From a virus: a stretch of 64,000 bases of DNA. Location of the stretch: positions 7,421 through 71,420 of the IMG/VR virus record IMGVR_UViG_3300027749_000098. One strand, 5' to 3'. The position numbers and the translations under genes were made by a program. This document shows, one piece after another, positions 2,536-64,000 of the stretch; positions within the stretch are counted from its first letter, which is position 1, and each line of letters begins with the position of its first letter. Below the pieces are notes generated by a model. It did not search any database and was not told the origin of the DNA. It worked only from the letters and a program-made list of their open reading frames with translations.

Positions 2536-2620
2536 AATTATTTCTTCTGAATGGGGAATTTGATTGAATTTTCGTCAAGAACTATTTCTCGTTAAAATAT
2601 AATAAGTTGAAAAAAAGTGC

Positions 2621-2649
2621 TTGACGAAATTAAATTTGTAGGTTACATT
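2621..2649 (+). promoter_or_regulatory. sigma70-like promoter pointing into an ORF-less hairpin region
   Basis: GC-TTGACG-N17-TACATT, same GCTTGAC consensus as other promoters in this window. Confidence 0.55.
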
Positions 2650-54362: not shown

Positions 54363-54553
54363 TTCTTGGTAATGTTAATCTTTCAACATATTATAAAACA
54401 AACTTTTCTTTAATGCAGCACCATAAGTATAGTTTACATGAGTTGGAAGAAATGATCCCTTGGGAAAGGGAAATTTATATTGGTTTATTGGTGCAGTATT
54501 TAAAAGAAAAAGAAGAGAAACGTAAACAACAAGAAGCTAACAGGAATATTTAA
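54350..54553 (+). CDS. gp51: gp51-like hub assembly protein, probably translated via -1 frameshift from gp26 (first ATG at 54413)
   Basis: Missing from the ORF track. Reads FFYLILGNVNLSTYYKTNFSLMQHHKYSLHELEEMIPWEREIYIGLL...; its TAA overlaps the next ATG. Confidence 0.8.
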   Translation, partial: FFYLILGNVNLSTYYKTNFSLMQHHKYSLHELEEMIPWEREIYIGLLVQYLKEKEEKRKQQEANRNI

Positions 54554-57500
54554 TGGCAGACAATACCAATGATAAAAAATCGTCTTGGATAGAAGATAGA
54601 CTTAAACAAAATTTATCTTCTGCAGCTCAACTTGGTTCGCAAGTTGGAGCTAAAGCCCAAGAAATTAAACAAGATTACAAGAAATTTGGAAAAGAAGCTA
54701 GCGAACTTCCAGGACAGTTATCAAGAAATAGAGCAGATAGAGAAGCAATATTAGCAAGAGAAAGTAAATCTAATGCATTAACGGAAAGCCAAAAAGAGCA
54801 ATTAAAAAATATTTCAAATGCTGGAGATGCACAAAAATTTGTTGATGCTTCTATATTGGGCAATGAAAATGGAGATTATGGAGCAGGACAAAGCGTATAT
54901 AATGATTCTATAAAAAGCGCAGGAAAAGCGTGGCTTGGATTTGGCGAAGATGTTGCTGTAGCAGCTCTAGGTGGACCAGCAATAGGTGCTGCAGCTAAAA
55001 TTGGAACTAAATTAGGCGGCGCAGCAATTAAAGGTGGATCTTCTGTATTTAAAGGGGCAGCAGAAGCTATAGGATCAAAACTACCTTCTTTAAAAAGTGT
55101 TAGTAATGTATTTAAAAGTGAAGCAGATATTGCCGCAGAAGCAAAGGTAGCCGAAAAAGCAAGAAGAGAAGCAGCAAGAGAAGCAAAACGAGAAGAAATA
55201 CGTGGAAATGCAACACGTTCAAAAAATTCAACTTTTGATTCTAATGCTGAATCTGCAGCAAAAAATGAAGCTGCAGCAGCAGAAGCAAAGGTAGCTGAAA
55301 AAGCAGCAGCTAAAGAAAAAAACGCGGATCCATGGACTGGAGAAACCGTAAACCAAAAAATGTCAAAACCTTTAAAACTAGATAGAATAGATACTGCACC
55401 TAAAAAAAGTATGATACCAAAAGCACTTTTAGGAGCTGCTGCTTTAGATGCAGGTTATGGTATCTATAAAGATCCAGAAGGTGCTTGGAATACTGCTAAA
55501 GAATTCGGTAACGATCTTGTTCACACTGGAATACATGGAGTCGCATCATTAACAGATGACCCAGAAGCAAATGAAAAAAACTGGAATGAAGCATGGGACG
55601 GAACAAATTTAGGAGATTTGGGAGACGCGGCTTCGACTGCAGCATCAGTAGCTACCGGAGCATATGTTGGTTCTCAAGGAAATCCATTTAGAGGAGCAGC
55701 ATCAGGAATTGTTGGTGGGATAGGCGGATTATTTGCTGCAAATAGATCTTCTGAAGCTACATTAAGTTCAATGCCATCAGGCGGAGATTCTGGAATGACT
55801 GGTGAATCGCATTTTGGTAGCGATGATATGTCAGGAAAAAGTGCTGTTGAGATATTAAATAAAATTTATGGCGTAATGTCCAGATTATACGATACTACTT
55901 TAACTATTTCCAGAGATACAGCAGCATTAGTTCGTGGTGCATCTTCTCAAGATGCAGCTAGAGATGCATCAACTGTAAATCTAATGGCAAGACAGAATGA
56001 AGGCGGATCATCTCCAATGTTTTATGGTGGAGGCGAAGGCGGCGGAAGCGAAGGTGGTGGAGGCGAAGGTAAAAAAGATAAAGAAAAAGGTAAAGGATTT
56101 TTCTCTAGTTTAATGGATAAAATTCCTAAAAAAGGAATAGCAGGAACAGCATTATCAGCTATTAGTGGTGCTGGAAATAAACTTGCTAAGGCTGCAAAAT
56201 TTCTTGGAGGTAATAAAGGAAAAATTGCTGCTGGACTAGGAGCAGGAGCTATGCTTGTTTCTAAAGATTTGGACGAAGAATTAGAGGGACAAGGTATAAC
56301 TGATCCATATGCAAAAGAAGCGATTAAAGCTAAAATGATGTCTGAATCTGGCGGCAAAGGTGGATCAGAAGGAAATTGGACTAAAACTTCCAATTCAAGA
56401 ATTAGAGAAAAAATGCCGCAATTAGCTCATATGAGCGACCAAGAATTAAATGACCTTAAATCTCAAGGAAATGAAGTATTTTTAGATAAAGCATATGAGA
56501 AATATGGTGGATTTAAATATCGCGGTAGAGGCTTAACTCAATTAACTGGAAAGGCAAATTATGAAGCTGCAGATAAAGCATTAGGATTAAATGGGGAATT
56601 GGCTAATAACCCAGATATATTAGCAACTGACAAAGAATTAGATAAAAAAGTATCGGTTTGGTTTTATAAAAATGCCGGAGCTGATAAAAAGAAATTTGAT
56701 AATCAAGAAGATGCAAATAAATGGGCTATTAATAAAGCTGGTGGTAAAAAATATGCACCAGGAACTGCTTTAGCTGAAGGAGAATTAGCTAGAGTAAATA
56801 AAATTCAACAATCAACTCCAGGCGGAAACCAAACTGCTGTTGCATCTGCTTCTCCAATAAAAAAAGATTCTGAGGCTACAATAAATCCAGAAAATGTTGT
56901 TTCTGGGCAAGGTACTAATGGAGAAAATGTTATTTCTGGGCAAGGTACTAATGGAGAAAATATTACATTATCTAAAACTGGTAGTGGGGGAGAATCTCGC
57001 ACAAGAACTGCACCAGAAGTAGAATTAACAGAAGAACAAAAAGCCTACGAAAAATGGCAAAATGATCCAATAAATAACCCAGATCCTCTTGCTAAACACC
57101 ATTCAAAAATTAAACCGCAAGGATATTTGGATGCTAAAGATGCATCTTTAGAAAAACAAAGAAAAACTGTAGAAGCCGATATGAAGGCAAATAGAATTAC
57201 TACTGACGAAGCAAATGCGAAATATGATGATATAAATAGAGAACAAAATAATAATGAATGGGCTAAAATGGAAAAAGCAGATGCTACAGCATCTCCATCA
57301 AAAAATTCTAAAATAGATGACATGGAAGCTGAATTATCAGAAGTGGATAACCAAAAAGCTACATTGCAAGAAGAACGGGATAAATTAGCGCAACTTTCTC
57401 CTAGAGATGAAAAAGAAATGGCATCACAATTAGATCGTTTATCTGATATACATACAGAAATGGGTGCATTAGACCAAAGAAGAAATGCGGTATCAGGAAG

Positions 57501-57705
57501 CCCAGAATATTTGGCTAATTTAGAAAATAGAAAATCTGGAGGAAGTCAACAAGCACCGCAACAAGCAACTGTTCAGCAAGTAGCCTCGGCTCCAACATCT
57601 CCAGCTGGAGCGGCTAAATCTATACCAAATTCTCGAAACGATGAACCAACTTTAAAAATGTTAGAAGAAGGGAATATGTGGAGAACAAATAGTCATGATG
57701 CATGA
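54553..57705 (+). CDS. Probable tape-measure/hub protein with a GH19-like muramidase domain
   Basis: 1050 aa, Ala/Gly-rich helical; GFKYRGRGLTQLTGKANY GH19 motif; follows gp26/gp51. Confidence 0.7.
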   Translation: MADNTNDKKSSWIEDRLKQNLSSAAQLGSQVGAKAQEIKQDYKKFGKEASELPGQLSRNRADREAILARESKSNALTESQKEQLKNISNAGDAQKFVDASILGNENGDYGAGQSVYNDSIKSAGKAWLGFGEDVAVAALGGPAIGAAAKIGTKLGGAAIKGGSSVFKGAAEAIGSKLPSLKSVSNVFKSEADIAAEAKVAEKARREAAREAKREEIRGNATRSKNSTFDSNAESAAKNEAAAAEAKVAEKAAAKEKNADPWTGETVNQKMSKPLKLDRIDTAPKKSMIPKALLGAAALDAGYGIYKDPEGAWNTAKEFGNDLVHTGIHGVASLTDDPEANEKNWNEAWDGTNLGDLGDAASTAASVATGAYVGSQGNPFRGAASGIVGGIGGLFAANRSSEATLSSMPSGGDSGMTGESHFGSDDMSGKSAVEILNKIYGVMSRLYDTTLTISRDTAALVRGASSQDAARDASTVNLMARQNEGGSSPMFYGGGEGGGSEGGGGEGKKDKEKGKGFFSSLMDKIPKKGIAGTALSAISGAGNKLAKAAKFLGGNKGKIAAGLGAGAMLVSKDLDEELEGQGITDPYAKEAIKAKMMSESGGKGGSEGNWTKTSNSRIREKMPQLAHMSDQELNDLKSQGNEVFLDKAYEKYGGFKYRGRGLTQLTGKANYEAADKALGLNGELANNPDILATDKELDKKVSVWFYKNAGADKKKFDNQEDANKWAINKAGGKKYAPGTALAEGELARVNKIQQSTPGGNQTAVASASPIKKDSEATINPENVVSGQGTNGENVISGQGTNGENITLSKTGSGGESRTRTAPEVELTEEQKAYEKWQNDPINNPDPLAKHHSKIKPQGYLDAKDASLEKQRKTVEADMKANRITTDEANAKYDDINREQNNNEWAKMEKADATASPSKNSKIDDMEAELSEVDNQKATLQEERDKLAQLSPRDEKEMASQLDRLSDIHTEMGALDQRRNAVSGSPEYLANLENRKSGGSQQAPQQATVQQVASAPTSPAGAAKSIPNSRNDEPTLKMLEEGNMWRTNSHDA

Positions 57706-57734: not shown

Positions 57735-58664
57735 TTAATCGTCGCCGACTAATTTACTGAAATAACTCATATCATCATCTTCTTCATCATCAATTACCGC
57801 TGCAGCAAATGAAGCAGTAGTTTTCTTTTCAACTACATTTTGTACAAACACTTCATCTTCAACCTCATCAAGAGATTTTGCTGTATAATCTTCAGCAGTT
57901 TTATATTTTGATTGATTAGTTTGACCTAAAACTCTTTTTAACCTAGCATCTAAATCTGCATAAGATTTAAAGTTTTTAGGTTCCAATAATTCTTGTAAAG
58001 AATATTGTGATTTCCAAAGTTTTTCTAATTTATCATCATCGTCAAATAATGGACCTGCGCTATCAAATTCAGCTAAATCGTAGTTTTGATAACCATCAAC
58101 TTTACGAATTTTTAATTTGAAGTTAGCACCAGTCCAGAAATCAAATGGATCGATTGGTTTATCGTCTTCGAACTGAGGATTCATGGCTTGAGTAATTTTT
58201 TCAAAAATTTTCTTACCATAAACATATTTAAATACTTTTCCTTCGTGTTCAGGATGTTTTGTATCTTTAACGATATAAATGTTAGAAACATAGTGCAATC
58301 GACGTTTTTGCTTACGTGCTTGCTCTTTGTTAGCTTCAATTCCTGATTCCCATAGTTCGCTATTATATTTTCCTAACGGATCGTCAAGACCGATTGACGT
58401 TAAAGATTTCTCGATATACCAACCACCTGGACCTTGAAAGCCATGATCATAATATTTTGCCCATGGAAGACCGTCTGATTCAGCATCTTTTGGAGATGTT
58501 GGAAGAAAGCGAATAACCGCATAACCATTACCAGATTTGTCTAACTCACATTTCCAGTATTCATCTGCATCGCTATTTTGATTTCCGCCAGCCATTTGCT
58601 CAACAGCTTTAGCCATTTTTTCTAAGTTTGAGCCTGATGATTTTTTTAATTTAGAAAAGTCCAT
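57735..58664 (-). CDS. gp32: Single-stranded DNA-binding protein
   Basis: DKSGNGYAVIRFLP, HGFQGPGGWYIE.SLT, PFDFWTGANFKLKIR, acidic tail; start ATG 58664. Confidence 0.96.
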   Translation of the reverse strand: MDFSKLKKSSGSNLEKMAKAVEQMAGGNQNSDADEYWKCELDKSGNGYAVIRFLPTSPKDAESDGLPWAKYYDHGFQGPGGWYIEKSLTSIGLDDPLGKYNSELWESGIEANKEQARKQKRRLHYVSNIYIVKDTKHPEHEGKVFKYVYGKKIFEKITQAMNPQFEDDKPIDPFDFWTGANFKLKIRKVDGYQNYDLAEFDSAGPLFDDDDKLEKLWKSQYSLQELLEPKNFKSYADLDARLKRVLGQTNQSKYKTAEDYTAKSLDEVEDEVFVQNVVEKKTTASFAAAVIDDEEDDDMSYFSKLVGDD

Positions 58665-58725
58665 ATATAAACACCTTATTAACAATTAATTTAAACAATG
58701 TATTAACAACTTAACACAACTGATT

Positions 58726-59322
58726 TCACTCGGTAAATTCTTTGACTGTATTAATAAACGTCTTTTTGAATTTACTTTTATCATACTCTAAAAACGACCT
58801 ATATTTAAACAATTTAAGTTTAACTTTTGGCCAAACGAATTCATCTTTAATATTTACTTCCCATTTAGGTAGAAAATGTAAAAACTCATTCATAATTAAT
58901 ATAGTTTCCGGAGAAACTTCATTTCGTAATAACTTCGTTAATAATAACGGAAGGTCATCACTATTTGATTTGAATAACAATTTATGATTTTCTTCACCAA
59001 AAATTGATATTAACTCGCCTTCAAATACATAAGATAATGATTGACATTTCGTATTAAACTTTACGAAATTTTCATATGCTTCCTGCGATAACAAGTCTTG
59101 AACCCATACGTTTTCGTTTTGCAAAAAATTAGCGATAAAGAATTTTTTAAGATCCTCATCGCTAAATTTCTTTGCAAGTTTTTCATACACATATTTATGT
59201 GAATTTTTATCAAACTGCGCAGGAGTATATTTTACTTTTCCTTTATACTTATTGAAATCATAATCTGTTGTAAAATGTAGTTTTAAGGCTCGATATAAGC
59301 AACAAGCTGTATATCCTGACAT
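58726..59322 (-). CDS. gp59: Helicase loader
   Basis: Y.ALKLHFT..YDFNKYKGK, VSPETIL; upstream of gp32. Confidence 0.88.
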   Translation of the reverse strand: MSGYTACCLYRALKLHFTTDYDFNKYKGKVKYTPAQFDKNSHKYVYEKLAKKFSDEDLKKFFIANFLQNENVWVQDLLSQEAYENFVKFNTKCQSLSYVFEGELISIFGEENHKLLFKSNSDDLPLLLTKLLRNEVSPETILIMNEFLHFLPKWEVNIKDEFVWPKVKLKLFKYRSFLEYDKSKFKKTFINTVKEFTE

Positions 59323-61017: not shown

Positions 61018-61767
61018 ATGTCCAGCACAAATACTTATATTATTACAGAATATCAACGTTCAAAATTTAAACCAACATATTTGATGATCAAGCAGCATCA
61101 AATTACAGGCAAAAAATATTTTTGTAAAACTACGAGAAATAATCCAATAAAATATCTTGGGTCAGGTAAGTATTGGAAATCACATATACAAAAATATGGA
61201 AAACAATATATTGAAACCAAATGGTATAAATTGTTTACCAATATAGATGAATTAGTTTCTTTTGCTTTAAATTTTTCTTATGAAAATAATATTGTTGAGT
61301 CGGATGATTGGGCTAACTTAATCTTTGAAAATGGATTGGATGGAGGATCAAATTCAGAAACAATATCAGAACAAACTAAAATAAAAATGAGTCTTGCGCA
61401 AACAGGAAAAGTTATGTCTATTGAATCCAGTATAAAAAAATCAATTGCAAATAACGGGCAAAGTAGAACCAAACAACAAAAAAATAATATATCAATTGCA
61501 TTAACTGGAATAAAAAAATCCGAAGAACACAAGAAAAATTTATCAATTAGTAGAACAGGGAAAACATACCCAAAAATATCCGAAAGTCAATCATATAAGT
61601 GGGTATGTATAAACACCAAATTTAATCAAGAATATAAAACTACACGATTAAAAGAATTTTGTAAAGAACACAATTTAAATTATAGTTCAGCAAAAGGTTC
61701 TAATGGTAAAATATCGAAATATGGAATAAATACTGGTTGGATATTTAAAAACCATAAACACATTTAA
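61018..61767 (+). CDS. Seg-like GIY-YIG homing endonuclease with NUMOD3-like repeats
   Basis: TYLMIK...GKKYFCKT...YLGSGKYW; KSEEHKKNLSISRTGK; inserted antisense between phoH and the exonuclease. Confidence 0.85.
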   Translation: MSSTNTYIITEYQRSKFKPTYLMIKQHQITGKKYFCKTTRNNPIKYLGSGKYWKSHIQKYGKQYIETKWYKLFTNIDELVSFALNFSYENNIVESDDWANLIFENGLDGGSNSETISEQTKIKMSLAQTGKVMSIESSIKKSIANNGQSRTKQQKNNISIALTGIKKSEEHKKNLSISRTGKTYPKISESQSYKWVCINTKFNQEYKTTRLKEFCKEHNLNYSSAKGSNGKISKYGINTGWIFKNHKHI

Positions 61768-61768
61768 T

Positions 61769-62473
61769 CTATAGATTTAATTTTTCTTTAGCAATAAGAA
61801 AACTTTTAACGATATCTGAACGCACGATGTCGTCAACAGTAAATTCAACTAAAGAAAATTCAGACATAATTGTGGCAATAGAAATTAAATCTTTAACTCC
61901 TGAATTTTCTTTTCGTTCATTTAAATCTGACTGACGAACGTCCCCAGCAAAAATAATTTTTGAATTTTCCCCTAATCTTGTTACGATTGTCGAGATTTCA
62001 TGTAATGTCATATTTTGAATTTCATCTACGAAAATTAAACAATTGGCATATGTTAAACCTCTCAAAAATGAAGAGGATTCAAATTCTATAATATCTTTTT
62101 GTTTCATAATATCATAAGCATCAGCTCGACCAAACAATTCATTAATTATTGACCGATATGGAGCTTCATAAACAGATATTTTTTCTCGTTCAGTTCCAGG
62201 AAGAAATCCTAAATCCCTAGTTGCAACAGCAGATCGCAGGATTACGATTTTACTAAATGCCGCTTCATCAAGCATTTCTTTTAGACCTAGATATAAACTT
62301 AAAAAACTTTTTCCAGAACCAGCACTACCATAAACGACTAGGTTCTTTCCTTCATCATACAAATCAAACACTTTCTTTTGGTTTTCTGTCATTGGATAGA
62401 TTTTTTTTAATTCAAAATGCAATGCAGAAACTCTATTTGCTGATTTTTTAGATCTGTTTTTAGGTTTTAACAT
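61769..62473 (-). CDS. phoH: PhoH-like ATPase
   Basis: GSAGSGKS, LGFLPG, FLRGLT, VDEIQN, GDVRQSDL, DIVRS. Confidence 0.95.
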   Translation of the reverse strand: MLKPKNRSKKSANRVSALHFELKKIYPMTENQKKVFDLYDEGKNLVVYGSAGSGKSFLSLYLGLKEMLDEAAFSKIVILRSAVATRDLGFLPGTEREKISVYEAPYRSIINELFGRADAYDIMKQKDIIEFESSSFLRGLTYANCLIFVDEIQNMTLHEISTIVTRLGENSKIIFAGDVRQSDLNERKENSGVKDLISIATIMSEFSLVEFTVDDIVRSDIVKSFLIAKEKLNL

Positions 62474-62545: not shown

Positions 62546-62562
62546 ACTACTATAAGAACATC

Positions 62563-62835
62563 TCAATATTCCTTTGGAATTTGAAATTTTCTATCATGGA
62601 GTGTATTTCCAGGGATAGACTCTTTCATTCTTCCAATAACGCCTTTCATAAAATCAGCAGGCGGCTTTTTAATTCCTAGTCTAACTGGATCACCAAAACT
62701 AGTTTTTGAACATTCAGAATCATAATATCTTTGAATATGAGGATTATCTTTAACATATTCTTCATATTCAGCAATCTTCATAATTTTCTCAAAGATTTCG
62801 CCAGTTTCAGTATTTTTTAATGGATAGATTGGCAC
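62563..62835 (-). CDS. Conserved T4-like hypothetical protein (FmdB-like N-terminus)
   Basis: MPIYPLKNTETGEIFE...Y.KDNPH; typically precedes phoH. Confidence 0.7.
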   Translation of the reverse strand: MPIYPLKNTETGEIFEKIMKIAEYEEYVKDNPHIQRYYDSECSKTSFGDPVRLGIKKPPADFMKGVIGRMKESIPGNTLHDRKFQIPKEY

Positions 62836-62870
62836 AATTTAATTCCAATAGGGATAATATGATTATTTAT

Positions 62871-63212
62871 TTATGCAGCTTCTTTCGATGCAACCCATTC
62901 TTTATATTGATTAGTGCGTTTATCCACATTTCCTGTTGGTAGACGAGGTAAATGTTCTGGATATGCATTAGCAGCATTAACCAATTCTTCAGTAAAAACG
63001 ACATCCTTCTCAACAGAAAGTTTAACTGTAGGTTTAGCATACCTTTTTTTAAAATCAACAAATGACTCTAGTACACTGATATGAGTATCATTATCAAAAA
63101 AGATAACTGTTTCTTGACCTCCAGAAGAAGGAACTACATAAGCAATTTTCTCTGGATTTACTAAGATTTCCTCACCAAACTGATTTTTCGATTTAACTAT
63201 AAACATAAACAA
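62871..63212 (-). CDS. Hypothetical protein with an FlbD-like N-terminal domain
   Basis: EILVNPEKIAYV...TVIFF....ISVLES pattern. Confidence 0.55.
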   Translation of the reverse strand: MFMFIVKSKNQFGEEILVNPEKIAYVVPSSGGQETVIFFDNDTHISVLESFVDFKKRYAKPTVKLSVEKDVVFTEELVNAANAYPEHLPRLPTGNVDKRTNQYKEWVASKEAA

Positions 63213-63230
63213 ACTCCATTAAAAAATATT

Positions 63231-63259
63231 ATTATACTATATACTAACAAATTAGTCAA
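63231..63259 (-). promoter_or_regulatory. sigma70-like promoter (leftward)
   Basis: TTGACT-N17-TATAAT. Confidence 0.75.
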
Positions 63260-63275
63260 GCAAAAGAAAAAATGC

Positions 63276-63304
63276 TTGACTAAATAAACTTTATAGAATA
63301 CACT
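63276..63304 (+). promoter_or_regulatory. sigma70-like promoter (rightward) into the structured non-coding region
   Basis: GC-TTGACT-N17-TACACT. Confidence 0.7.
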
Positions 63305-63310
63305 ATGTAA

Positions 63311-63865
63311 AGTTGGCTCCGAACCCAACGTCACAGTTATACCCTACAATTTATTAGCAAAAAGTGAGATAGCAACTCACCTTACCGGAGAAACCCTTAT
63401 CTCCAGTAGGTCTGAAAAGATAAAATCTATATGTGACTAGATTATTATCGTACCTGAGACGAGGCAGACACTCTTAATAAGAGTAAAAGTATATATTCGA
63501 ATACTTTTCGGCGACTGGATAAAGGACGCCGTTATCATTAGTCTAGGGTCGGTCCCTTTTTCTGTTGTTTATGCGTCCTATGTTGATTTTAGCCACAACA
63601 CTTCTTCAGCCAATCAGAGCATAAATAATCGGCGGACTATCTTTAACAGGATAGTTTCTAGTTGTAATAGTTTTTGTAGCTGACACCCGCACCAGTTGCA
63701 GTTTTTCTTTAAAACCTAAGTGTATATATTCATATACATGAACGGGGGGTCAAAGAAATTCAATCTAAGAAAAACTGGATCTTGATTCCGAAGGAATCGA
63801 TCGAGCGAAGCGAAGATTATATTAGTATCAAATTAAATGTTCGCTTCGCTCACATTGCTTCGCTT
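63311..63865 (+). ncRNA. Candidate large structured non-coding RNA (or RNA-primed origin)
   Basis: No ORF of 60 aa or more; GC-richer; more than 12 hairpins and nested long-range helices; own promoter. Confidence 0.6.
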
Positions 63866-63896
63866 TATTAATTTATTAATGTTGTTAAATAAATGC

Positions 63897-63925
63897 TTGA
63901 CGAAAACAAAAATTCAAGTTACAAT
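63897..63925 (+). promoter_or_regulatory. sigma70-like promoter for the next gene
   Basis: GC-TTGACG-N17-TACAAT. Confidence 0.7.
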
Positions 63926-63971
63926 AAATAAAAATGTAGAAACAAATCTCCCCCTTCGGGAAATTAACCAT

Positions 63972-64000
63972 ATGGAATCAGTAATTGATTCTAACAGTAA
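63972..64000 (+). CDS. Start of an ORF running off the right edge
   Basis: ATG GAA TCA GTA ATT GAT..., downstream of the promoter; only 9 codons visible. Confidence 0.35.

Follow-up and report, generated by a model that had tools for sequence, protein, structure and literature searches.

To our knowledge, only few large, intricate RNAs of bacteria and phages are recognized (GOLLD, ROOL, OLE, HEARO, raiA), and most of them are without a known function. Here, we analyze an element of about 550 nucleotides (nt) located at positions 63306 to ~63866 on the plus strand of a viral DNA stretch of 64,000 nt, termed the window, which corresponds to bases 7421-71420 of the 71,420-base IMG/VR record IMGVR_UViG_3300027749_000098 (completeness estimate 40%) and belongs to an uncultured T4-like freshwater phage. 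On comparative evidence, the conserved, structured and non-coding element is real. It is probably the gene for a stand-alone, highly structured phage RNA that falls into no described family, and the best reading is that this RNA is GOLLD/ROOL-like in kind without being a member. It would thereby add to the large RNAs a further candidate with a pseudoknotted, covarying 5' domain, an almost frozen 3' core and a defined transcription unit in abundant lake phages. A preliminary description of the window had suggested an uncharacterized large structured phage RNA with a promoter of its own; this suggestion is supported, the promoter being one of a class present at six sites.

A cryo-electron microscopy paper places GOLLD and ROOL in phages and prophages, frequently close to transfer RNA (tRNA) islands. 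GOLLD is a large, ornate phage-encoded RNA that was first seen in lake metagenomes, and the RNA described here stems from lake phages as well. The conserved 3' and less conserved 5' region of GOLLD, as portrayed in that paper, has its counterpart in a two-part pattern: between the window and L037 (related loci and contigs carry L numbers), 41 of the 226 columns of the 5' domain contain substitutions and 2 are gap columns, compared with 9 in 161 for the 3' core. On the other hand, the Rfam model for GOLLD is matched neither at the gathering score nor at E-values up to 10 (63100-64000), many GOLLD members exceed 800 nt, and in its own clade the present RNA is not located beside tRNAs but ~70 kb away from them. 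ROOL, according to the same paper a large phage/prophage RNA with multiple pseudoknots and no known protein partner or function, is similar in these respects and differs by its hosts and habitats, by its Rfam model, which finds no match here, and by the adjacent tRNA island that is lacking here. A homo-oligomeric cage is a further hallmark of GOLLD and ROOL.

Phage T4 produces the stable RNAs C and D, early non-coding transcripts of ~120-140 nt without known function that are co-transcribed with tRNAs, and the respective tRNA region is guarded by a seg-type homing endonuclease. A seg-like gene also resides beside the RNA described here in one lineage. RNAs C and D are much smaller, however, and a blastn search with the DNA of the new element (63200-64000) produced no match among 50,697 phage records. 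Another related arrangement is the PeSL of Comeau, Arbiol and Krisch (PMC4122927), in which a stem-loop precedes an early promoter of the sigma-70-like type and which bounds swapped segments in hyperplastic regions of T4-like phages. The terminal hairpin of the RNA and the promoter of the next operon (63895-63925) form such a stem-loop-plus-promoter composite and border bodies that are exchanged among related phages, designated A (the RNA studied here) to D. While PeSL cassettes as described there (PMC4122927) carry small open reading frames (ORFs), an ORF-free covarying RNA is found here. With regard to repetition, the promoter part occurs at 6 sites and the stem once, in a 64-kb window of a genome that is 40% complete.

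Fold, covariation and conservation of the RNA

The 113-amino acid (aa) protein encoded to the left of the RNA led to 11 IMG/VR loci, 10 of which hold the RNA region at 85-98% identity. An exact 20-mer together with the downstream DUF6433 protein yielded 3 further contigs, 2 of them ending inside the RNA, and a metagenome scan with a 21-mer added only 2 more, both incomplete. In total, the RNA is present in 16 contigs from one clade of freshwater T4-like phages, as a single copy in each genome searched. Among the 12 full-length copies there are 9 distinct sequences, which fall into about four lineages (window-like, L026-like, L028-like and L037-like). A type A profile found no match at E up to 1 in 28 more distant loci (nhmmer), and a scan of the genome collection resulted in one 21-nt chance match within a rumen contig of 53% GC, without further similarity. 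The 113-aa protein was considered as an obligatory partner and rejected as such: its homologue in L080 adjoins the DUF6433 gene without any RNA gap.

The plus strand of 63306-63800 attains a minimum free energy (MFE) of -127.4 kcal/mol, compared with -108.3 +/- 5.4 kcal/mol for shuffled sequences (z -3.56, 0/100 as good). Of the 161 pairs returned by RNAalifold, 17 showed compensatory changes. Invariant long-range pairs were dropped from this prediction, and CGGCG/CGCCG and GUCACA(63330-35)/UGUGAC(63432-37) were added. The resulting model comprises 153 pairs in 22 helices, and 99.3% of 1369 cells are paired across the 9 distinct full-length sequences. Both partners have changed at 20 pairs, as opposed to 8.5 +/- 2.2 in column shuffles, none of which (0/500) reaches 20. 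As related sequences can beat shuffles, slid alignments are the fairer comparison, and here the outcome is clear: six such controls gave 0, 1, 1, 0, 2 and 1 double-changed pairs. The checks against shuffled sequence and against homologues in T4-like metagenomic phages, both named in the preliminary description, were thus in its favour.

Eighteen of the 20 double-changed pairs lie in the 5' domain (63312-63531). When the window is compared with L037, 29 of the 41 substitutions in this domain affect paired columns, 24 being compensated and 5 ending unpaired; with L028, 12 of 26 do so (10 compensated, 2 remaining paired), and with L026, 8 of 13 (6 compensated). Helices P4 and P5 together account for 5 compensatory pairs. 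The same kind of comparison shows a pseudoknot in the 5' domain: GUCACA pairs with UGUGAC in the loop of P5, supported by 2 compensatory pairs with one change in each of two lineages. Embedded in this otherwise fast-changing domain is the conserved stretch ACCCUACAAUUUAUUAGCAAAA.

Fourteen helices had been proposed for the element in the preliminary description, 12 of which are present and kept in all relatives. Compensatory changes occur in seven of these, including GTCACA/TGTGAC, GTGAG/CTCAC (2 pairs), CTTAC.GGAGA/TCTCC.GTAGG (4), CTCTT/AAGAG (3), AAAAGTAT/ATACTTTT (1) and CGGCG/CGCCG (1). The helices GTTGG/CCAAC, TTGTTTATGC/GCATAAATAA, GACTATC/GATAGTT, TGTAGCTG/CAGTTGCA and CAGTTTTTCTT/AAGAAAAACTG are invariant and hence predicted only. 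Two helices are contradicted by the relatives: TCT-GAAA-AGA acquires a C.A mismatch in the L028 lineage, and CTAGATTA/TAGTCTAG (63437-44/63539-46), put forward as the closure of a second domain, loses one pair in the L028 and two in the L037 lineage. Since the same bases of the latter region covary in P4 and P5, GTCACA/TGTGAC does not close a nested first domain as had been assumed; the helix itself stands, as the pseudoknot with the P5 loop. The fold is therefore corrected in its details, with two helices replaced and one pseudoknot added.

The 3' part of the RNA evolves in a different mode. Between L026 and L037, four-fold degenerate sites of the flanking genes differ at 9/36, 14/34 and 8/27 positions (31/97 in all), the 5' domain at 45/224 aligned positions, and the 3' core (63560-63720) at only 8/161 (Fisher p ~1e-8 versus the four-fold sites). 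These comparisons show purifying selection on the 3' core, which must accordingly be held by its sequence and not by pairing alone. For the same reason, the helices of the core remain predicted only. A tertiary CCCG/CGGG pair between 63686-89 and 63743-46 is conceivable. L026 and L028 present another picture: none of the 92 four-fold sites compared in the flanking genes differs, yet 31 positions and 7 gaps in 240 columns set the two 5' domains apart, a pattern that is mosaic and not clock-like divergence. In the L028 lineage, a gene for a 195-aa seg-like GIY-YIG endonuclease is inserted exactly between the two divergent promoters, with its stop codon overlapping the -35 element of the RNA promoter. 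Co-conversion during homing is a plausible cause of the mosaic 5' domain. The seg-like gene is located at L007:2285-2872 (minus strand), the L007/L009/L010 lineage being the one with the mosaic 5' domain, and it is related, as a paralogue, to the endonuclease gene at 61018-61767 (plus strand) of the window.

From these patterns a division of labour can be envisaged. The 5' domain with its nine helices and pseudoknot, in which the sequence changes fast and pairing is preserved, would serve as a scaffold; the sequence of the 3' domain, which closes with the GC-rich hairpin of 12 base pairs (bp), is itself under strong purifying selection. The RNA would act in trans during infection, and its invariant 3' core may be the working surface that binds a conserved protein or RNA or assembles with its own copies. 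Sites in the window complementary to 63341-62 or to the loop 63680-95 (up to 3 mismatches) were confined to these sites themselves. A direct repeat of 21 nt with 81% identity links 63484-63504 (P8 hairpin, 5' domain) to 63717-63737 (AU-rich hairpin, 3' domain) and may be an internal duplication.

The absence of an ORF of at least 60 aa, noted in the preliminary description, was borne out for the plus strand between 63213 and 63972. The longest stop-free stretch (80 codons, 63441-63680) is without ATG, GTG or TTG and is frameshifted or interrupted by stops in 6/9 sequences. Variable columns are distributed over the three codon positions without phase (19/20/24 and 9/14/11); neither a conserved open frame with a start codon nor a third-position bias was found. 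None of 4227 Rfam families matched the window at the gathering score, in line with the uncharacterized RNA proposed earlier. With E-values up to 10, 63100-64000 gave 10 chance-level matches (best 22.7 bits versus a cut-off of 49), none of them to a large-RNA, tRNA, transfer-messenger RNA (tmRNA), intron or ribozyme family. Likewise, ARAGORN called 0 tRNA or tmRNA genes in the window, L005, L007 and L011, in keeping with the earlier statement that no such signature can be recognized. Hallmarks of tmRNA are a G.U third acceptor pair and a CCA end. A permuted two-piece tmRNA or tRNA-like domain was rejected: the loop of the hairpin at 63312-29 has 8 nt, GUCACA/UGUGAC is without G.U and no CCA follows. 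A repeat-array RNA, e.g. of a type III toxin-antitoxin system, was rejected as well, the sole tandem repeat being the 8-nt duplication TTTATTAA (twice) at 63864-63880 behind the terminal hairpin, which is peculiar to the window's copy.

In the literature, we found no earlier description of this RNA. In the text of a pelagimyophage survey (PMC7029224), the words noncoding, ncRNA and tmRNA occur 0 times. A survey of IMG/VR v3 reports 8495 candidate structured RNAs of 29-151 nt (PMC10690425), and single hairpins of the present RNA might be among these motifs. RNAs of this size would be missed by gene callers and by surveys of viral intergenic regions that are based on such short motifs.

Probable transcription of the element

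The promoter TTGACT-N17-TACACT postulated in the preliminary description is present at 63276-63304. Its -35 element and a TAnnnT -10 element are retained in all relatives, the latter as TAAACT or TATACT, and as TATAGT in front of type B bodies. Transcription would start near 63311. The motif GCTTGAC-N16-18-TAnnnT has 7 matches at 6 sites in the 64 kb, compared with 0.37 expected, and 0/100 shuffled sequences reach this count. Five of the 6 sites point into gp59, a 164-aa gene, the 113-aa gene, the RNA and the next operon; the sixth is at 2619-2649 (plus strand). The -35 element of the leftward promoter of the 113-aa gene is the left arm of an inverted repeat (63253-63284). The RNA is probably transcribed from one of the standard sigma-70-like promoters of the phage. 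The terminal hairpin (63803-51) is not directly followed by a T-run; a U-rich tail is located at 63864-63880. A second copy of GCUUCGCU (63857-64) was considered as the true terminator stem and rejected because this pairing is uncompensated in the L037 lineage.

Three studies (freshwater, lake, estuary) provided RNA libraries whose contigs cover 63484-63775 with 0-8 differences. Parts that are not covered (e.g. 63752-63885 in X15 and X17) carry no evidential weight.

Table 1. Positions of the RNA's structural elements, of the promoters and of neighbouring genes in the window.
Feature	Position	Strand	Remarks
RNA promoter	63274-63304	+	GCTTGACT, -35 at 63276-81; 17-nt spacer; TACACT -10 at 63299-304
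P1 hairpin	63312-63329	+	GUUGG-8 nt-CCAAC; invariant stem, variable loop
Pseudoknot strand GUCACA	63330-63335	+	pairs with UGUGAC 63432-63437 in P5 loop
Conserved stretch ACCCUACAAUUUAUUAGCAAAA	63341-63362	+	predicted single-stranded; invariant but for two positions in one lineage
P2 hairpin	63364-68/63376-80	+	2 compensatory pairs
P3 long hairpin	63382-85/63406-09, 63387-91/63400-04	+	4 compensatory pairs
Three-way junction P4/P5/P6	63410-63469	+	
P4	63410-14/63465-69	+	GUCUG/CAGAC
P5	63419-28/63439-49	+	GAUAAAAUCU/AGAUU.UUAUC; 10-nt pseudoknot loop 63429-38
P6	63453-55/63462-64	+	CCU/AGG
P7	63470-75/63479-84	+	3 compensatory pairs
P8	63485-92/63501-08	+	1 compensatory pair
P9	63509-13/63527-31	+	1 compensatory pair
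Variable linker	63532-63559	+	4-nt indel; weak hairpin 63545-48/63554-57 unconvincing
Near-invariant 3' core	63560-63720	+	predicted helices invariant
Predicted helices of the 3' core	63559-74/63619-34, 63582-86/63606-10, 63635-42/63649-56, 63676-82/63693-99, start of 63700-09/63767-76	+	
Distal 3' part	63721-63802	+	AU hairpin 63720-27/63732-39, G-run 63744-49, 1-2-nt indels
Hairpin	63778-63802	+	GAUC..GAUUCC-GAAG-GGAAUC..GAUC; 1 compensatory pair
Terminal hairpin	63803-63851	+	GAGCGAAGCGAA/UUCGCUUCGCUC; 12 bp, GC-rich, 1 compensatory pair
Next promoter, DUF6433 operon	63895-63925	+	GCTTGACG-N17-TACAAT; same class as RNA promoter
Leftward promoter of 113-aa gene	63231-63261	-	GCTTGACT-N17-TATAAT
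113-aa gene, left neighbour	62871-63212	-	
PhoH	61769-62473	-	
NUMOD3/GIY-YIG-type endonuclease gene	61018-61767	+	between replication genes
gp59	58726-59322	-	
gp32	57735-58685	-	

Competing explanations

Several observations weigh against a stand-alone RNA gene on the plus strand. The covariation is carried by only about four independent lineages, and the 3' domain shows no variation in its helices. On the reverse strand, folding is equally favourable, with an alifold energy of -142.28 kcal/mol against -141.96 kcal/mol for the plus strand and an MFE z of -3.00, and a tally of G.U versus C.A in covarying helices favours the plus strand at 4 positions and the other strand at 2. As neither thermodynamics nor alifold energy tells the two strands apart, the strand call rests on the promoter, and the G-U pairs adduced in the preliminary description for structure at the RNA level are a weak argument. 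The terminator scan called no canonical intrinsic terminator on the plus strand. In L059, the type B body is followed by a gene without an intervening promoter motif, such that read-through is possible there. The RNA-library depths of 3-8 are similar to those of neighbouring genes and derive from contigs that bear no strand, ends or abundance; while parts of the stretch do appear in RNA libraries, these contigs reveal neither a discrete transcript nor its 5' and 3' ends or strand. One of them (62556-63480) even spans the promoter gap between the two divergent starts, which suggests DNA carry-over or read-through.

As one alternative, the rightward early operon (DUF6433 to topoisomerase) could begin with the element as an extended, structured 5' leader or contain it as a co-transcribed segment that is processed; the element would then act in cis on stability, termination or read-through and not as a free RNA. 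We regard this as unlikely, but it is compatible with the orientation shared with the downstream genes, the failure to find a canonical plus-strand terminator and the type B body of L059, which runs into a 132-aa gene without an intervening promoter motif. Against a leader, a second full promoter of the same class lies between RNA and operon in the window, L056 and L060. Four unrelated bodies preceding the same operon would be odd for a specific cis-regulator, and the invariant 3' core is more than 250 nt away from the next start codon.

A replication origin, for which a primer RNA was the second option of the preliminary description and at which the promoter-driven transcript primes DNA synthesis as an R-loop in the manner of T4 oriF/oriG and the hairpins act as single-stranded DNA, is distinctly improbable. 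The region is ORF-free, contains divergent promoters and is surrounded by replication genes, and a promoter-driven non-coding transcript among replication genes is just what T4 oriF and oriG have. The T4 transcripts are nevertheless defined by a middle-mode promoter plus an unwinding element and not by a conserved fold, and T4-type origins carry a short AT-rich unwinding element behind the promoter instead of 550 nt of conserved helices. Furthermore, the T4 MotA box is located 11-13 bp from the -10 element, whereas TGCTTGA is 19 nt from it here. The GC content in the RNA region is raised and not lowered, 20 compensated pairs and a pseudoknot are unexpected for a DNA unwinding element, and related phages replace the whole body with unrelated ones. 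In favour of an origin, DNA hairpins likewise accept G.T pairs, and the terminal stem holds GCGAAGC; in DNA, this motif folds into a mini-hairpin of extraordinary stability and has been reported from sites where single-stranded DNA phages are primed (PMC13037366).

Exchange of bodies could also mean that the stretch is plastic filler, i.e. a PeSL-like cassette in a hyperplastic region that holds decayed ORFs or selfish DNA, with the RNA itself being functionless. Composite terminator/promoter motifs that shuffle cassettes have indeed been described in T4-like phages (PMC4122927). The four different bodies flanked by a common promoter and a common terminal hairpin, the seg-like GIY-YIG gene beside the RNA in one lineage and the 31 mismatches and 7 gaps in 240 columns of the 5' domain in genomes with identical flanks all conform to this notion. 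In decaying DNA, on the other hand, the pairing of 99.3% of 1369 cells would not survive 20 double changes, nor would a 161-nt core persist with 8 differences next to 31/97 changed four-fold sites. Moreover, no RNase H remnant was detected (tblastn, all E > 1). Filler is already disfavoured on these grounds and has a very low probability.

Still less probable is a functional RNA from the minus strand, that is an antisense or leftward transcript. This strand folds equally well, and the pair 63386/63405 and the change of L026 in P7 can pair only there. Four positions, however, pair on the plus strand only, UGUAGCUG/CAGUUGCA and UUGUUUAUGC/GCAUAAAUAA depend on two G.U pairs per helix on the plus strand, and no promoter of the phage class points leftward into the region, where a match to 9 of 12 consensus positions at 63613-63586 is all that was found. 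Finally, the chance that the region encodes one or more very small proteins is practically negligible: short ORFs such as a 17-codon ATG frame from 63571 and a 15-codon frame from 63739 are present, but neither is preceded by a Shine-Dalgarno sequence, all three substitutions in the former are non-synonymous, 1-2-nt indels hit the latter, and variable columns lack a phase.

Alternative bodies and surroundings of the locus

Distant loci were fetched with an alignment of DUF6433 proteins. These phages share the layout with PhoH, a 90-aa regulator and a 113-aa homologue encoded leftward, promoters in an inverted repeat, and an ORF-free stretch. The type B body (L055-L059, e.g. L056:1385-1785) comprises ~400-470 nt (z -2.43) and is the only one of B, C and D with compensatory changes, 13 pairs between L056 and L059; its 5' hexamer GUGUCU matches the loop AGACAC/AGAUAC of a covarying hairpin. 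Types C (L054:935-1355, z -3.99) and D (L060:1345-1895, z -2.60) are known from one sequence each, and their structure is only suggested. In BLAST comparisons, bodies A-D have only the last 12-50 nt in common, with the GAGCGAAGCG hairpin; they also share the promoter motif. Bodies B, C and D match no Rfam family at E up to 1, and an SRP-like (signal recognition particle-like) motif in type B was discarded on the same result.

Preserved structure in bodies A and B, together with a type A 5' domain that diverges faster than neighbouring synonymous sites, invites the tentative idea that this group of freshwater T4-like phages keeps an exchangeable RNA cassette at a set position between divergent promoters, with at least four unrelated bodies (~400-560 nt) between one promoter and one terminal hairpin, as a new class of modular RNAs in an arms race with the host. 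We consider this conceivable but doubtful. If true, the bodies could target a host defence or RNA-processing factor, for instance as decoys or inhibitors, or could assemble by themselves into particles like GOLLD/ROOL. Irrespective of this idea, the RNA described here indicates that hyperplastic cassettes of T4-like phages can carry RNA genes rather than small ORFs, and the three alternative bodies at the same locus provide a natural experiment on the purpose of such RNAs.

Farther relatives have an RNase H gene in the corresponding place. A decayed RNase H gene was rejected as a candidate for the stretch: tblastn with two RNase H proteins gave E > 1 throughout, and phages of types A and B possess an intact rnh elsewhere. 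Another distant relative has, upstream of the DUF6433 block, four tRNA genes (Gly, Leu, Met, Arg; L070:1183-1522) that are preceded by the promoter motif of the RNA. Many unrelated viral contigs (L082-L138, 38-71% GC) also contain hairpins with the stem GAGCGAAGCGAA/UUCGCUUCGC. In contigs of high GC content it is the core of a long palindrome, CGTCATTGCGAGCGAAGCGAAGCAATCCAG..., which we take to be an element resembling repetitive extragenic palindromes, perhaps of alphaproteobacterial origin; in L126 it forms a plain intergenic hairpin. This recurrence would be explained by a mobile motif or by convergent evolution towards a highly stable stem.

In the window, the RNA occupies an ORF-free gap of ~800 nt and has a GC content of 0.375-0.42, compared with 0.26-0.33 in the flanks. 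The right neighbour, the DUF6433 gene, starts just beyond the window end and is visible in relatives, among them L005 and L011. The DUF6433 proteins P0001-P0013 show 75-92% identity. Replication genes (gp32, gp59) and PhoH lie to the left, and in relatives RNase H and topoisomerase genes follow to the right. Behind the second promoter (window 63945-64000; L026:2400-2500), a hairpin UCUCCCCCUUCGGGAAAUU and a 12-codon ORF (MESVIDSNSNFK) precede the DUF6433 gene; given its frameshift in L036, translation of this ORF as such is improbable. Six contigs from different samples (the window at 64000, L029, L036, L039, L040 and L016) end within or beside the RNA, which may fit strain-level heterogeneity breaking assemblies at this spot. 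DNA sequencing runs that hold the stretch carry a freshwater or lake-water label, and 14 of the 24 matches listed contain at least half of the sampled words.

The window's gp32 is ~54% identical at most to gp32 of cultured cyanophages or marine viruses. Judging from protein matches, the host may be an alphaproteobacterium. Two tRNA genes are found at the start of the window's own record, outside the window (G000:C1:606-762), and eight in the 126-kb relative G001 (C1:90970-93430; 90.9-93.4 kb); in both genomes they are ~70 kb away from the RNA. A 1050-aa protein encoded at 54553-57705 (plus strand) has a short match to glycoside hydrolase family 19 (chitinase/lysozyme-like) at residues 650-713 and is probably a virion-associated cell-wall hydrolase.

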